The notes under the pieces are model-generated. The model ran no database searches, was not told the origin of the DNA, and saw only the letters and a program-made list of their open reading frames with translations. From sequence record NC_079175.1: a stretch of 53,040 nt of DNA; one strand, 5' to 3'. The stretch comes from Escherichia phage PO103-1. Below, piece by piece: positions 1-53,040 of this stretch. Positions within the stretch are counted from its first letter, which is position 1; every line of letters begins with the position of its first letter. The translations under genes were made by a program, and so were the position numbers.

Positions 1-36
<36 letters not shown>

Positions 37-186
37 AATAAAATTATAATATTGCCACAATTCGAGTCTCGTAGCTTTGTTACGAATTCTAGTCTCATTA
101 ATTCTGTAGCAATATTTAAATTAAAAAAAAAATTATAAAAAAAATTATTTCATAGTCGGTCTTCCATTCGAACAAATTTTGGCGAG

Positions 187-241
187 ATACAGCTGACCGA
201 CCATGAACGAATTACTGTCCAGGTACAGTTGACCGACCATG
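187..241. repeat. Two 17-19-bp direct repeats TACAG(C/T)TGACCGACCATG
   Basis: Copies at 187-205 and 223-241, near the left end of the genome as presented. Confidence 0.5.
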
Positions 242-283
242 TGCCATTTGGTTTTAACTTTACGCATTCCTAATATTACTCTT

Positions 284-300
284 AATATTGTAGCAATATT
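284..300. promoter_or_regulatory. Palindromic operator-like site AATATTG-tag-CAATATT
   Basis: Perfect 7-bp inverted repeat with 3-bp spacer. Confidence 0.4.
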
Positions 301-389
301 GGGAATAAATAAATATTTAATTTACTTGTTTTATTCTAGCTCAAAGAGAAACGACGCTAACGCATCGAATCTCTTCTCGCATATAATCG

Positions 390-1490
390 TTACAGCTCAA
401 ATCCGCCCAGGGCATTGGTGTCCACTTCGGAGTCAATCTGCCCGACAAGGTACGAACTAATCTCCGTTTCCTGTGGAGCAACTTGTACAGCATCCGAATT
501 CAACCATGCGTTAATCCAAGGAATCGGATTAGTAGCACCTTTGAATGGAGCATCCAATCCAACTGCTTGCATACGAATATTCGTGATATATTCCACATAT
601 CCGCACAGAATTTGCTTGTTTAAGCCAATCATTGAGCCATCTTTGAACAAATAATCAGCCCAATCTTTCTCTTGTTGGGCCACATTTTCGAACATTTCTT
701 GGCACTCTTGACGGCATTCTTTAGCAATTTCGGCCATTTCTGGGTCATCAACACCTCTTGCAAGAAGGTTCAGCATGTGTTGAGTTCCGGTCAAATGGAG
801 TGCTTCATCACGAGCAATTAAGCGAATAATCTTGGCATTTCCTTCCATTAACTTACGTTCAGCGAAGGCAAATGAGCAAGCAAAGCTGACATAAAAGCGA
901 ATTGCTTCCAGCGCATTAATGGACATGAGGCATAAATACAGCTTCTTCTTAAGCTCACGAAGAGAAACTTTATCTTCATGCAGATGCCACATGGAAGTCA
1001 GATGTTGAAGCTCGTCATAATATTGGGAGATGCCAATTGCACGCATTTTAATATGCTCATTCTCTACAATTTCATCGAAAATGACGCTAGGGTCTGTCAC
1101 GATATTACGAATAATGTGTGTGTAAGAACGGGAGTGAATTGTCTCTGAGAATGACCAAGTTTCAATCCAAGTTTCAAGCTCAGGAATGCTCACAATTGGC
1201 AGCAAAACTGTGGTTGGTCCACGCCCCTGAATGGAATCGAGCAGGATTTGGTATCGTAAATTGCTGGTGAAGATGTGCTTCTCGCATTCAGGCAGACCAG
1301 CATAATCAATTCGGTCCTGGCTAACATCAACCTCCTCAGGTCGCCAAAAGAAAGATAACTGCTTCTCGATTAACTTCTCGAAGATGCTGTACTTCTGTTG
1401 GTCATATCGGGCAACGTTAACGTTCTGACCAAAGAACATTGGCTCTAGTAGTTGGTTATTCTTGGTTTGTGAAAAGGTAGTGTAAGCCAT
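390..1490 (-). CDS. nrdB: Ribonucleotide reductase class Ia small (beta) subunit, host-like
   Basis: 366-aa ORF; N-terminus [28 protein letters not shown] and RDEALH regions match E. coli NrdB as I recall it almost residue for residue. Confidence 0.9.
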
Positions 1491-2044
1491 TACAGATTTC
1501 CTAGATACTCATAGAATTTATGGCCACCATAACGTCCCAGACCTTTAACATTCTTGAAGTTGCACTTCTCCGATGCTGTACAAAAGTGGGTTGCTTTGGT
1601 GACAGAGGGTTGATTAAATAATACAAAAGAGATTGCAACATTAATGGTGTCCAGAACTTGTTGTTGTTCTGTGGCATAATTAATCTTTGCTACATGCTTC
1701 CATTGAGCATTCTTCTTCTTTGCTTCTCGTGTCCATGCAAATTGATTGCGTTGATAGACAACATCACAAACGGTGTTAGCGAATGGCTTCCCGAACTCAG
1801 TTCTATTACGGACGACATTAGCTACCAGAATCTTTCCATGTTTGTCCTCACCGCGAGCTTCATACCAGATAACTTTAGTATAGCATTCTAGCTCTTTGCG
1901 TTGTGAAGAAGATAGTTTCAGACTTCCATTTAAATAAGAGTGACTTGCAAAATCTGTAATAGCAGAATTCACTGCCCCAACCGAAGCTGGGGCGTTGATG
2001 TGAACTAAAGCTGTCAGAAGTGCAAGGACTTTGAATGATAACAT
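1490..2044 (-). CDS. Secreted cell-wall hydrolase, SleB/CwlJ-like
   Basis: N-terminal signal-peptide-like segment ([18 protein letters not shown]); [22 protein letters not shown] motifs typical of the SleB/CwlJ hydrolase family. Confidence 0.65.
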
Positions 2045-2061: not shown

Positions 2062-2403
2062 TCATCGTGCCTTCTTGAACCACGTCAAAGGATTAAGTTG
2101 TTTGATTGCGCCAGAGAAACTTTCCCTGACAGTTGTAATAATGAGGTTGGCACCAATGACACCAATCACAATAGCTAACACCAACTGCATAGTGACGTTA
2201 GTTGTGAAAGTTTCAAATGTACCTGCGACCTGAAATGCAAACAGCCCGATTAAGCTGCATAGCGTCGCATCCAGCAACGCTTTGCTTAAACCCTCACTCT
2301 CATATGCACCACGGATTAAGGCTGTCAGTCCAGCCAACAGTCCATGCCAAACGCCGTATTGGTGCATTGCTTCCCAAATCATCTGGAAAGTTTGTCTATC
2401 CAT
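2062..2403 (-). CDS. Small membrane protein, putative holin
   Basis: 113 aa with about three hydrophobic segments; lies immediately upstream (minus sense) of the secreted hydrolase. Confidence 0.4.
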   Translation of the reverse strand: MDRQTFQMIWEAMHQYGVWHGLLAGLTALIRGAYESEGLSKALLDATLCSLIGLFAFQVAGTFETFTTNVTMQLVLAIVIGVIGANLIITTVRESFSGAIKQLNPLTWFKKAR

Positions 2404-2945: not shown

Positions 2946-4266
2946 TCATATATTTCTGGAGTTTACGACGACCAACGTAGTCGATAAGTTCGTCAGCAGT
3001 TTGGTTGATTACAGCGGTGATTACCCAACCAGACTCATCTCGATACCCATAGCCACGCCATGTGGTAGTCTCTTGGTAAGAGGCCAGGCGAATATCACTC
3101 ATGAAGGAAGAGTTTACCCAATTCTCCCGTGCAAAACGGAATGGGCCGCCATTGCCAGTGTAGTCGATGTTGCCGTCATTCTGGAATACCCAGTTGTGCA
3201 CAGCACCATCATCACTTCGACGCGAAATTACAGGACTTGAGAAGTCAGATGTTCTGGAGTAAGCCCCGAAGGAAATCCAAGAGCCGTACCCATAGCCGGT
3301 CGTAGTTGTATGCAGTGTTAAAATAGGAACCCAGGCATCTGGACCCACTGTACAGTTATACACCCCATAAGGGACGTGTCCGTCTGCCTCTTGGCCCCAA
3401 CCACGACCCCAAGTTACGCCACGATACTGTCCATCCAAGAATAGCTTGAAGTCTTGTCCAGTACCACGTACTCCAAGTTGGTTGATGCCTTCTGCAATGA
3501 TACGTGCAGTGTAGTCTAAACCAGAGTTTGCATAGTGGAAGTCGATGTATGGAATATCGTTATACAACTCTATTGCACCAACTTCTGTGATGCGGTCGCG
3601 CTGATTTACTCGTGCAAGCTCTCTCCAATCGGCCCAATTCTGTGAGGAATCGAGTGTACGACTACGAACCCAAACGTTCCCATATATTGATGTGTAACGA
3701 TGTTGAACACCGTATGCAGTCGGAAGAACTTCCAGTGTGCCAGCATGTGCTGCCGGATAGCCACCAGCAGAGCCAGCCACAGCATCAGATATTTGGTAGT
3801 AAACCCCAACATCCGATGAATTTATCAGGAGGTTGATGTTCATACTTGCGGCATCTTTGCAAGCCATTACAGCATGTGCTGTGTACGTCCTGCTGCCAGA
3901 CGTACCTTGTGAGTAGTACATAATTGGCGGTCGTGCTGCCTGACCATGTGTTACTAAGATAGAGGCATTACTGTTATCAGAAATCCCAAGAACAGTTATG
4001 ATTACATATGCCCCACTGAACTTCCCAAGGTCCCACTTCTGTAACTCTGGTGGGACGTTTACAGCAGAGTTCATTTCAACATATAAAACTTCACCATTGG
4101 TGAATGTGTATGTATTGAAATTGAAGTTTGTTACAAATGCTGTGGCTGGAATCTGGGCATTCTTTTGTCCAACAGTGATTACCTCACCACGAGCAGTACC
4201 TGCATTTAAGAATGCAGCAGACTTTAAGGCGGCAATTAAGCCGCCAAATGACCAACCTTTAGCCAT
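2914..4266 (-). CDS. Tail fibre protein (distal, likely receptor-binding)
   Basis: 450 aa, Gly/Tyr/Thr/Asn-rich, last of three fibre-like genes and followed by the Tfa-like chaperone. Confidence 0.55.
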   Translation of the reverse strand: MAKGWSFGGLIAALKSAAFLNAGTARGEVITVGQKNAQIPATAFVTNFNFNTYTFTNGEVLYVEMNSAVNVPPELQKWDLGKFSGAYVIITVLGISDNSNASILVTHGQAARPPIMYYSQGTSGSRTYTAHAVMACKDAASMNINLLINSSDVGVYYQISDAVAGSAGGYPAAHAGTLEVLPTAYGVQHRYTSIYGNVWVRSRTLDSSQNWADWRELARVNQRDRITEVGAIELYNDIPYIDFHYANSGLDYTARIIAEGINQLGVRGTGQDFKLFLDGQYRGVTWGRGWGQEADGHVPYGVYNCTVGPDAWVPILTLHTTTTGYGYGSWISFGAYSRTSDFSSPVISRRSDDGAVHNWVFQNDGNIDYTGNGGPFRFARENWVNSSFMSDIRLASYQETTTWRGYGYRDESGWVITAVINQTADELIDYVGRRKLQKYMNGTWYDSYSV

Positions 4267-4275
4267 TACATTACC

Positions 4276-5667
4276 TTATAAAGTAGAGATTTGGTTTGGT
4301 GTCATTTTGAAATCCCAAACTCGGAAGTTGCGAACAGCATAGTTTCTTGATGTTGGCTGGAAATGAATCTGAGGATACCTGCCAACACATGCAGCCGCAC
4401 CATTCTGCGAGGCATCAGCAGCCACACGAACACCATCAACGTATATTTCAAGTCCAGTGGTCGTACTTAGGGTTGCAGCAATACGATACCAGCGATTCAC
4501 TCGGTTGGGGAGATTATAGTAAATCCAGTCACTAGCACCAGAGGCATTTCGGTTAAGGTTGAGCTGCCCCTTGTTCTGCAAATAGAAGTCTATGTTCTCA
4601 CTATTCAATCCATTTAGGGAGAAGAATACGCCAACAGAATCGTCACTGCTCGGCGCACGAGGTGAGTTGGAAAGAACATCCACACAGATTGTGCAGTCTG
4701 TAAATCCATATCCCGCACCTTCGTAAAGAGTTTCTCGAACATCCTGCCCAGCAGTTCTGTACAGGGCACCACCATAATCGTTGTTAAAATACAGACTGTC
4801 GGAGGCATTGATTGCACCCTTGCCAGAGTTGATATTAAAATCACCAATCAAGTGCTGACAGAAATTTGGTGCAGGTACTGCATACTTTGGTTCTTCTCGC
4901 GCCTTAACTTCTGCAAATGTTGCATCAGTAATAATTCGGGAGTTGGTGTTTGTTGATGCCTTGCCAACAACCGGAACACCGCTGGCATCCAGCCCAATAC
5001 GTTCGTCACCTGACTGCATATAAAGGCCAGCAGGACCAAACGACAACTTAGAAGTTCCGCTTACATCAAACAGCATACCTTGCTGGAATGTAACAGGTCC
5101 GGTGTAAGTACCACCAGGGACAGGAACAGCACCTGCCTGGGCAGCAGTTACTTTGTGCGGATTGTTTCGGTCATTGGCATGACTCGCAACAAGGGCATTG
5201 TACTTAGAAATCAGCGAATCGATTTGTGCTTTGTTGTATGCACCAATCATGTTGGCTGTCAGTCGATGTGGGTTGGAAGTGGTATCTGCGATGTGTGCAG
5301 AAATCCTGCTGACAATATCATCGTAGTCGTAACGAGATACTTGAATAGCACTTGCAGCCCACTGCCCCAAGTTCTCACTAGGACGTAAAGTACGGCTAGG
5401 AGAACCAACAGTTGCAACATAAACAGTTCGAGTCGCATCATCCCATACGAGGGAACCAAGTCCATACTGAACATCGGTTCCCCATTCGAAGACACCACGC
5501 TCAGCCAGTGCTAGGAGAGTAGTGTCAACCTTATACTGCAAATAGTTAAGAACCTGGAAGGTTGGGATTTCTGCAATCCACCCTTGAAGATACTTGGCAT
5601 CCCCAGGGTCACGCCGTAGGTTGGCATTGTTTGAAGTCCAGACTCTATTAAGTTTTGGTCTTAACAT
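4276..5667 (-). CDS. Tail fibre protein
   Basis: 463 aa; shares NPHK...GG(T)(F/Y)TGP(V/I)TF motif with the neighbouring fibre gene. Confidence 0.5.
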   Translation of the reverse strand: MLRPKLNRVWTSNNANLRRDPGDAKYLQGWIAEIPTFQVLNYLQYKVDTTLLALAERGVFEWGTDVQYGLGSLVWDDATRTVYVATVGSPSRTLRPSENLGQWAASAIQVSRYDYDDIVSRISAHIADTTSNPHRLTANMIGAYNKAQIDSLISKYNALVASHANDRNNPHKVTAAQAGAVPVPGGTYTGPVTFQQGMLFDVSGTSKLSFGPAGLYMQSGDERIGLDASGVPVVGKASTNTNSRIITDATFAEVKAREEPKYAVPAPNFCQHLIGDFNINSGKGAINASDSLYFNNDYGGALYRTAGQDVRETLYEGAGYGFTDCTICVDVLSNSPRAPSSDDSVGVFFSLNGLNSENIDFYLQNKGQLNLNRNASGASDWIYYNLPNRVNRWYRIAATLSTTTGLEIYVDGVRVAADASQNGAAACVGRYPQIHFQPTSRNYAVRNFRVWDFKMTPNQISTL

Positions 5668-50738: not shown

Positions 50739-52679
50739 TTATTGACAGAAGTAGTAAGCGTGTTCGCTCATCAGAAGCTCTTCGGTTACGATGTTCTCAT
50801 GATACATCTGAATGCCACCAAGTTGCTTAGACAGATTCTCGAATTGATTGTTGGTTACAAAGATTTCAACATATGCTGCACGAATAACTTCCATCATACG
50901 TGGAGCATCTGCCAAACAGCAACGGAAACAATCATGGATTGAAGTGAAGCCACGAAGACCAGCTTCTTTAGCTTTAACTGCAACAGTACGAGCAACAAGT
51001 GCATCAATACCTTGAATGTAGTTAACAACGAAAGTACGCTTGAATTCTTCTTTAGTTGGATTGGATTCACGAATGGTCCAAGGCTTATTCTCCTGAATCT
51101 GACCAAAGATAACACGAGTTTGGCTGTCAACACGAATGCTGAATGCCTCACAGATTTCACGAGATGGGAAGCAAGGCTTCATTACAACCTGACCATCAGT
51201 GTGACGGTATGTGATGTACTCTTTACCAAGTTCAACACAACGGTTGTATGCAGCATCAGCAGCTTTCTCAATGAACATGTTAATCTTAGCACCCAATGCG
51301 TTATGGATTGCTTCCACACACAGTTCAGCAAATGCCTCAGCTTTCTCCATAGGAATCTGGAGAGCTTCTGTCATGTAGCTAATGAAGTCAGATGAACCAG
51401 TTAATGCAGCTTTACCACCACCGTATTGAATGGCCATGTAAGGAGTTTTGATAAACTTACGACCAGCTTTCGGATTCAAGAATTCATCCATGATTTCAGC
51501 AGATGGTTTCATTGAAGAACGGTCGAGTAACTTCAACAGCTCACGAAGACTCAACTGGTATGGGTCAGATGCTTTAGTCTCAGAATCAACCAGACCTGTT
51601 GCACGAGCCATTTCCATGTTACCAGCAATGAATGCCAGATATTGAGTACCAGAACATTTAGCATCTAATCCAAAGCCTACACGAGAATCGCATTCACCTG
51701 TAGTCTCAAACTTGAACCAATCCAGAGCCAGACGAACATAAGTGAATGGCTTAGAAGGACGTTCAGCTTTAGGCATGTTCATCATGCGAGCAAGTGAACC
51801 AGCTGGATTCTGAGCAACATAAGTTAAACGCTTAGCACTGCACCATTCACCACCAGAAATATCTTCCAGCTCTGCCATGAACATGTTGTATGCAATGGTA
51901 GTAGAACCATCTTCGTTAAACTTCTTAACGATGTTCTCAACATTGTGAGAATACAAGCAACGAGCAAAGTCAGAGGATTGTGGGTTAGGACCAGCACATG
52001 CTACATGATACAGGCGACCACGGTTATCAGCAAAGTAGTCAGAATACAGTGTGTCCTGATTCATCATTGCTACAGCATTGTTCCAAACATGGAGTTCAGT
52101 CTGGATTGCTTCTGGCATCTGCAAGCCACCGTAGGTACGTTGTTCAAGCATGGACTGGATGATGCGAACCATCTCAGTCTCCACATGGTACTCAGTATCT
52201 TGCAGGAATTCGATTGCAGCTTTCAGAGTCTTGGATGGCTTAACTTTGCCACCTTTAACGAAAGGCTTGCGACGAGATTCAGATGTAACACGCTCAGTGA
52301 ATGGCACTGCGGTGTCTTTGGTTGTAACCAGTTCAACCCATGTGTCAGTCTGTTGGAATGACTTGTCTTCGTTCATGGTTATGAAGCCAAAGTGCTTAGC
52401 CAGACCAATGAGGTTGATAGCTGGGTCAACATAGTGCATTGCTTTCAAATCGTTGTTGTAGCGGTTGGCATCAGCAATAGAAGCAGAAGCCAGCTCAACC
52501 ATCGCAATGGCAGGAACAACGTCGTCACGTGTGAAAGACGTCATCATCTTGAATATGGCTAAGGCAGCAATAGCACAAGTCTGAGGCTGCATATAGTTCT
52601 GCTTCTCTTTGGCACGGTATACCAGAGCAGTGATAGCAGGAACAACAGATTTGATAGTTTGAGTGGTGATAGTAGTCAT
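50739..52679 (-). CDS. Single-subunit DNA-dependent RNA polymerase (T7-like, compact)
   Basis: 646 aa; GLDAKCSGTQYLAFIAG, RKFIKTPYMAIQYGGG and SIHDCF parallel T7 RNAP DGSCSGIQHFSAML, RSVTKRSVMTLAYGS and HDSFGT; GGAG 8 nt upstream of ATG. Confidence 0.85.
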   Translation of the reverse strand: MTTITTQTIKSVVPAITALVYRAKEKQNYMQPQTCAIAALAIFKMMTSFTRDDVVPAIAMVELASASIADANRYNNDLKAMHYVDPAINLIGLAKHFGFITMNEDKSFQQTDTWVELVTTKDTAVPFTERVTSESRRKPFVKGGKVKPSKTLKAAIEFLQDTEYHVETEMVRIIQSMLEQRTYGGLQMPEAIQTELHVWNNAVAMMNQDTLYSDYFADNRGRLYHVACAGPNPQSSDFARCLYSHNVENIVKKFNEDGSTTIAYNMFMAELEDISGGEWCSAKRLTYVAQNPAGSLARMMNMPKAERPSKPFTYVRLALDWFKFETTGECDSRVGFGLDAKCSGTQYLAFIAGNMEMARATGLVDSETKASDPYQLSLRELLKLLDRSSMKPSAEIMDEFLNPKAGRKFIKTPYMAIQYGGGKAALTGSSDFISYMTEALQIPMEKAEAFAELCVEAIHNALGAKINMFIEKAADAAYNRCVELGKEYITYRHTDGQVVMKPCFPSREICEAFSIRVDSQTRVIFGQIQENKPWTIRESNPTKEEFKRTFVVNYIQGIDALVARTVAVKAKEAGLRGFTSIHDCFRCCLADAPRMMEVIRAAYVEIFVTNNQFENLSKQLGGIQMYHENIVTEELLMSEHAYYFCQ

Positions 52680-52975: not shown

Positions 52976-53040
<65 letters not shown>

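Follow-up and report, generated by a model that had tools for sequence, protein, structure and literature searches.

What could a phage gain from a gene for the beta subunit of a class Ia ribonucleotide reductase (RNR) when it has none for the alpha subunit, how did it come by this gene, and with which partner might the product work? These questions are raised by Escherichia phage PO103-1 (NC_079175.1), of which the window analysed here, a stretch of 53,040 nucleotides, represents the whole genome: that of a phiEcoM-GJ1-like myophage of ~53 kb, which the classification of its relatives found by megablast places in Carltongylesvirus (Chaseviridae, Cleopatravirinae). The first 3 kb of the window are 96% identical, by megablast, to Shigella phage vB_Shi_2KOFFS and Escherichia phage Ecp_YSF. 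Every gene is encoded on the minus strand, in an array that runs from a single-subunit RNA polymerase gene (50739..52679) to nrdB, its final gene, as a first-pass annotation of the sequence had it. The published layout of phiEcoM-GJ1 and ST32 likewise has the RNA polymerase as ORF1 and the RNR beta subunit as the final ORF (PMC6266442). The gene and the two parts of it on which the argument turns are:

390..1490, minus strand: nrdB, class Ia ribonucleotide reductase beta subunit, 366 aa (open reading frame, PF00268 and PDB matches; stop codon at 390..392)
393..494, minus strand: C-terminal beta-tail, equivalent to E. coli D342-L375, which holds Q349, E350, Y356, and the last 20, alpha-binding residues
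963..980, minus strand: site of a 10-residue deletion (residues ~171-176), where alignments place a short loop instead of the beta-hairpin at E. coli ~172-183

Judged from its sequence, the product of 390..1490 is a complete class Ia NrdB. The Pfam profile Ribonuc_red_sm (PF00268) matches the 366-aa protein with an E-value of 3e-49 over profile positions 7-281 of 281, and PDB chains of E. coli NrdB align with it at full length (E = 1e-199, phage residues 1-366 against 1-376). In a global alignment with the E. coli NrdB taken from a complete genome, 299 of the 366 aligned residues are identical (81.7%, or 79.5% if the 10-residue deletion is counted), and the longest identical stretches span 30, 22, 21, and 18 residues. 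The first-pass annotation had described the two proteins as nearly identical over long stretches, which is a fair account of these runs but not of the whole protein, at only ~80%. The six di-iron ligands (D84, E115, H118, E204, E238, and H241 in E. coli numbering) are intact, the radical tyrosine Y122 is kept, and so are the radical-transfer residues W48, D237, and Y356 and the gating residues E52 and E350; all ligand, Y122, and PCET residues are also identical in 7 further phage copies. The phage protein is like E. coli NrdB (class Ia beta2; PDB 1MXR, 7AI8) in having the same catalytic and PCET residues, one loop apart, and unlike it in the deleted beta-hairpin, in the change of fifteen cellular-invariant positions, and in its phage codon usage. 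As part of the explanation preferred below, it is reasonably likely that the phage NrdB is catalytically competent and of the diferric-tyrosyl radical type.

The first-pass annotation saw no gene for an alpha subunit in the window, and we confirm this. A tblastn search with E. coli NrdA against the circularised window returned no homologue (best E = 1.3), a search for a YfaE-like ferredoxin gave none either (best E = 1.7), and tblastn revealed no nrdA or yfaE remnant beside nrdB. Since the span from the RNA polymerase gene to nrdB equals the complete phiEcoM-GJ1 genome, nrdA is missing not just from the window but from the genome; the curated annotation of phage flopper also includes nrdB, thymidylate synthase, and dUTPase and lacks nrdA. 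It could be argued that a highly divergent large subunit sits unrecognised elsewhere in the phage, many of whose ORFs are without annotation. This is extremely unlikely, because there is no match to NrdA in tblastn, the ORFs of at least 400 aa all have other Pfam identities or look tail-fibre-like, and only five ORFs reach 500 aa, each of them assigned otherwise (a YqaJ+SLT virion protein, the terminase, DNA polymerase A, a primase-helicase, and the RNA polymerase). Known RNR catalytic subunits exceed about 550 aa. In E. coli, nrdB is part of an nrdA-nrdB-yfaE operon, whereas the phage gene stands outside any such operon; the lack of an nrdAB arrangement bears on operon membership and not on membership of the protein family.

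An orphan nrdB is already known and is ordinary for Carltongylesvirus. The RNR beta subunit has been annotated in phiEcoM-GJ1 since 2008 and in dozens of relatives later, and Table S1 of Dwivedi et al. 2013 gives only 'nrdB' for phiEcoM-GJ1; the authors write that 'two phages only contain nrdB' and that it is unknown whether incomplete RNR suites work (PMC3653736). A literature search for an orphan phage NrdB working with host NrdA found no relevant paper. The present contribution lies mainly in correcting the idea that the gene was recently captured and in sharpening the hypothesis of a hybrid reductase.

The nrdB gene is clearly old in the phage and was not recently captured, because synonymous saturation, codon usage, and phylogeny agree. 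Nucleotide identity between the phage gene and E. coli nrdB is 69.5-71% in all 5,426 complete E. coli genomes, synonymous sites are saturated (Nei-Gojobori pS = 0.84, with dS not computable), and the same codon is used at 42% of identical residues, where independent draws would give 36%. The comparison of codon usage and GC content, by which recent capture could be judged, goes against it as well: GC3 of the phage nrdB is 0.441 (z = +1.05 relative to 33 phage genes), that of E. coli nrdB is 0.626 (z = +7.2 relative to the phage genes), and the RSCU of the phage gene correlates with that of the phage genome at r = 0.68 and with that of E. coli nrdB at r = 0.20. Overall GC content is 43.1% in the gene and 37.6% in positions 1-1000 of the window, a value lowered by an AT-rich non-coding region. 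Among cellular proteins, E. coli NrdB is nearest (81.7%), followed by those of Proteus, Xenorhabdus, Yersinia, Erwinia, and Vibrio (77-79%), whereas NrdB of T4-type phages is only about 52-54% identical to both the PO103-1 and the E. coli protein; the enterobacterial type of origin given in the first-pass annotation therefore broadly stands. E. coli NrdB itself is 88-91% identical to those of other Enterobacterales and 79.8% to that of Vibrio. In a neighbour-joining tree (364 columns, rooted on T4-like NrdB, 200 bootstraps), four Carltongylesvirus-type proteins form a clade with 100% bootstrap that branches outside the cellular Enterobacterales, and 0 of the 200 bootstraps group phage and E. 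coli NrdB; this is a crude distance method, in which a fast-evolving phage branch could be drawn basally and long-branch effects are possible.

The idea put forward in the first-pass annotation, of a gene recently captured from the E. coli host and not yet integrated into the biology of the phage, is thus almost certainly wrong. It can draw on E. coli having the most similar cellular NrdB, at 81.7% against 77-79%, and on 12 positions common to phage and E. coli but present in few other Enterobacterales, which may reflect ancestry or convergence. These are outweighed by the nucleotide divergence from all 5,426 E. coli genomes, the saturated pS, GC3 and RSCU values typical of the phage, the bootstrap count, and the occurrence of the gene throughout the genus, the 2008 type phage included. 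The same bootstrap count led us to reject an origin from E. coli in particular.

The distribution of the gene best fits a gain at the base of the genus. An NrdB at least 89.8% identical to that of PO103-1 is found in ~44 records, all of Carltongylesvirus type and including phiEcoM-GJ1, and in all of them nrdB lies directly 3' of the endolysin gene, in the slot after holin and endolysin. The orthologues named in these phages (phiEcoM-GJ1 gp75, ST32 ORF79, flopper gp26, and those of Mangalitsa and PYps) hold this same slot; Carltongylesvirus orthologues are 90-99.7% identical to PO103-1 NrdB, are set apart from it only by the length of the hairpin (372, 369, or 366 aa), and likewise come without nrdA. 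In the syntenic Loessnervirus phage vB_EamM-Y2 and Sabourvirus phage 4HA13, the last genes of the array are holin and endolysin, followed by one or two very small ORFs; local tblastn of the whole Y2 genome and of the right 8.4 kb of 4HA13 found no NrdB in these sister genera, and the 4HA13 paper nowhere mentions a reductase. Since these relatives lack it, nrdB is an accessory gain, with the two marks of a moron-like gene, i.e., absence from syntenic relatives and a place at the boundary of a gene array, and any benefit that it confers would be conditional. The simplest history is that the Carltongylesvirus ancestor took up the gene in one insertion where the late array ends.

Since its gain, the gene has been functional and under strong purifying selection, as follows from dN/dS values of about 0.01-0.08 within Carltongylesvirus (dS up to 0.75-0.86), and its reading frame is intact in all phage copies. 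Of 254 positions at which 15 cellular NrdBs do not vary, PO103-1 NrdB has the same residue at 234. Fifteen cellular-invariant positions are altered in all four phage copies compared, namely H68, K78R, T81I, S90G, V93T, A94V, N131T, D139E, I161Q, G179 (deleted), V200I, R253A, Q306G, N343A, and D369A. The loss of the surface beta-hairpin is the only lineage-specific structural change in the phage protein. This element is of full length in 15 of 15 cellular homologues and shortened in the phage copies, by 4 residues in GJ1 and PYps (372 aa), by 7 in FXie-2024a (369 aa), and by 10 in PO103-1, flopper, and ST32 (366 aa). AlphaFold2 models, used for the locally confident hairpin region only as their mean pLDDT is 57-58 on a shallow alignment of closely related sequences, place hairpin strands at 174-178 and 181-185 in a cellular representative (local pLDDT 81-93) and a six-residue loop, 171-176, between two helices in PO103-1 NrdB. 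The series suggests a stepwise erosion of the hairpin in a protein that is otherwise strongly constrained.

The interaction with an alpha subunit depends on the tail. In E. coli, the beta tail D342-L375 contains Y356 and accounts for 26 of the 44 contacts made directly between alpha and beta (PMC11482829), and the peptide Y356-L375 binds alpha2 on its own (PMC11447812). The phage tail is identical to it at 26 of 34 residues and at 15 of the last 20, for which identity to E. coli is 15-19/20 among cellular Enterobacterales, 12/20 in Vibrio, and 8/20 in the T4-like JS10. It keeps L370, F373, and L375, differs from E. coli by D368N, D369A, S371G, N372G, and Q374E (D369 being invariant in the cellular set), and is nearly invariant across the 8 phage copies examined.

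An orphan small subunit with a full catalytic apparatus and a host-type tail is best read as a partner of host NrdA. The reliance on host NrdA proposed in the first-pass annotation is plausible in view of the catalytic and PCET residues and of this tail, and the best explanation of the locus, probable if by no means assured, is that an anciently gained and selectively kept nrdB provides a beta2 that would form a hybrid with host alpha2. The Carltongylesvirus ancestor would have acquired nrdB long ago, as a last gene added to the late array of tail, holin, and endolysin genes; phage beta2 would dock via its host-type C-terminal tail onto host NrdA (alpha2); and the resulting hybrid alpha2(host)-beta2(phage) reductase would raise or sustain dNTP synthesis in the infected cell. 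The reason would presumably be that the small subunit, which bears the radical, is the limiting or perishable one once the phage controls host gene expression. Since the phage encodes no YfaE-like ferredoxin, cofactor assembly and maintenance would depend on host factors. That the hybrid forms, is active, and benefits the phage is inferred from sequence conservation. Against it stand the five differences from E. coli among the last 20 residues, D369 among them, the location of nrdB after the lysis genes, an odd place for a replication-phase function, and the sister genera that do without the gene.

Other readings of an orphan, constrained nrdB have to be weighed against this one. The partner gene is absent and a surface element is shrinking stepwise, as might be expected if nrdB were a decaying or neutral passenger left behind when nrdA was lost, but a passenger would hardly keep an intact frame in all copies and dN/dS of 0.014-0.08 over dS up to 0.86, the flanks hold no nrdA or yfaE remnant, and nrdB abuts the endolysin gene with a 1-nt overlap; we regard such decay as highly improbable. 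Slightly less remote, though still very unlikely, is a non-catalytic role, in which the phage NrdB would sequester or block host NrdA in a dominant-negative manner or serve some purpose other than reduction. The retained tail makes binding to NrdA plausible, and the gene is located with lysis rather than replication genes, in line with such a role. An inhibitor, however, needs neither Y122 nor the six metal ligands nor the PCET pathway, all of which are invariant at dN/dS of at most 0.08, and a shut-off of dNTP supply would be harmful to a phage that has its own DNA to replicate and carries homologues of thymidylate synthase and dUTPase.

More serious, while still unlikely, is a variant of the hybrid itself, in which phage beta2 pairs with host NrdA and its value lies in changed regulation rather than in capacity, either through a weaker dATP-induced inactive alpha4beta4 ring or through escape from host control on NrdB. 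The loss of the hairpin and the lineage-specific substitutions would then be adaptive changes. [quoted passage not shown] Yet no phage copy differs at I297, which fills the cone-domain pocket, or in its loop DGSMIGLNK, the literature consulted on either complex assigns no role to the beta-hairpin (PMC11447812, PMC11482829), and the T4-like NrdB is also gapped within the hairpin, which suggests that this element is a dispensable decoration. Escape from dATP feedback via the alpha4beta4 interface, with I297 and its loop unchanged, was for this reason demoted to a rival of low probability. A bolder form of the idea, that phage beta2, hairpin-less and with its 15 lineage-specific changes, is a re-engineered radical subunit that takes over host NrdA in a hybrid with altered control (e.g., less inactivation through dATP-driven alpha4beta4 rings, a radical that lasts longer, or no need of some host factor), strikes us as a little more doubtful again; if it were true, the phage would decouple dNTP synthesis from host feedback with a single 1.1-kb gene.

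For a hybrid reductase that supplies dNTPs, the timing of nrdB expression is the weakest point of the model. The elements that surround the gene are:

1488..1502, minus strand: translation start region, with Shine-Dalgarno sequence AGGAAA at 1502..1497, endolysin stop codon TAA at 1492..1490, and nrdB ATG at 1490..1488
1490..2044, minus strand: endolysin, PF07486 (Hydrolase_2) at 1e-15, named endolysin or SAR endolysin in relatives
2062..2403, minus strand: holin, PF05106 (Phage_holin_3_1) at 2e-8
342..367, minus strand: terminator-like hairpin CGATGC-GTTA-GCGTCG with T-rich tail, 23 nt past the nrdB stop codon (consensus scan)
39..341, minus strand: AT-rich non-coding region with AATATTGCTACA repeats and a 40-aa ORF (145..267), between the late array and the RNA polymerase gene

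Read directly from the sequence, the nrdB ATG overlaps the stop codon of the endolysin gene (TAATG), which implies co-transcription of nrdB with the lysis cassette and possible translational coupling to it; the same Shine-Dalgarno sequence has been reported for ST32 ORF79 (PMC6266442). A consensus scan found no sigma-70-like promoter upstream of nrdB, and downstream of it the putative terminator hairpin (at 367..352; a consensus match only) is conserved in phage flopper. On account of the overlap of start and stop codons, the lack of a promoter of its own, and the downstream hairpin, we read nrdB as the tail of the late/lysis transcription unit, the boundary of which is marked by the AT-rich region 39..341. 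In Chaseviridae, the promoters that the phage RNA polymerase would use are not known (PMC12842549).

The closest parallel to an orphan beta subunit with a foreign partner comes from eukaryotic viruses. Most chordopoxviruses encode R2 only, more than 70% identical to host R2, this R2 forms functional hybrids with host R1 via its C-terminus, and the same study remarked on an R2 bias in bacteriophages (PMC2900304). Poxvirus R2 (vaccinia F4, myxoma R2) and the phage NrdB have in common that the small subunit alone is encoded, that it is host-like, and that it has an R1-binding C-terminus and the radical tyrosine; the features by which the R2-only strategy is recognised in sequence, i.e., a small subunit alone, identity to the host above 70%, and a kept C-terminus, are all present in the phage. 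The two differ in that the poxvirus case concerns a eukaryotic virus and enzyme, with the hybrid and the need for it in replication shown by experiment, and the phage case is known from sequence alone. Among coliphages, the virulent T4-type JS10 also encodes a class Ia small subunit; unlike the PO103-1 gene, its nrdB adjoins its own nrdA, and the tail of the protein is divergent (8/20), ending in KKYF. If the hybrid is real, it would be the bacterial-virus counterpart of the poxvirus R2-only strategy, and in the best-understood RNR, the class Ia enzyme of E. coli. It would also mean that the radical subunit, not the catalytic one, limits dNTP supply during infection, and it would offer a naturally diverged beta2 (~18% substitutions, hairpin-less) with which to probe subunit recognition and the formation of the allosteric ring.

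The AT-rich region next to nrdB has features of its own. A motif AATATTGCTACA(A/G)(T/A)ATTAA... is repeated at about 300..265 and 117..80, downstream of nrdB, and the 40-aa ORF at 145..267 holds the tandem-like repeat CATGGTCGGTCA(A/G)CTGTA. Flopper has a conserved counterpart of the region, with two annotated repeat_regions, and the repeats probably serve as early promoters for the host polymerase in front of the phage RNA polymerase gene. Beyond it, the two ends of the window (1..38 and 52977..53040) lie in one homopolymer (read on the minus strand, a 5' run of 64 T and a 3' run of ~38 T, or more than 100 nt once joined); the counterpart in flopper is only 'tttttattttttg' (around 10900..10915 of the segment compared). 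Either the tract is an artefact of the assembly or record, or it is hypervariable sequence at the genome terminus or close to it. Elsewhere in the array, the gene at 12211..15882 (minus strand) encodes a 1,223-aa virion or tape-measure-like protein with a YqaJ-like domain (residues 459-595, 2e-12) and an SLT domain (1058-1134), and this pairing of a YqaJ-like recombinase/exonuclease with an SLT lytic transglycosylase is unusual for a tail protein.

Some related genes turned up outside the genus. Two jumbo phages, Pantoea phage Survivor and Klebsiella phage N1M2, encode a host-like NrdB, 73-77% identical to that of PO103-1, with no adjacent nrdA (nrdB at 3995..5379 and 3995..5128, respectively, of the segments examined); in Survivor, nrdB is followed by a small 'ferredoxin' gene in the position of yfaE, and neither phage is among those whose NrdA is host-like, with 57% or more identity to the E. 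coli protein. Orphan host-like nrdB genes may be commoner than the two phages counted in 2013. A GJ1-type NrdB (90.6% identical) is also present in PP952070.1, Staphylococcus phage Pel53 (53.7 kb), which is labelled an S. hyicus phage and matches the PO103-1 group of coliphages by megablast; the phage was probably assigned to the wrong host, or it was isolated from a contaminant. Finally, an nrdB-like segment with ~75% identity over a quarter of the query occurs in 203 records of E. coli plasmids (e.g., NZ_CP133922.1, 101098..101588); SSU5-like phage-plasmids (~100-110 kb) carry an NrdA ~63% identical to that of E. coli, and the plasmid segments are probably phage-plasmid nrdAB genes.
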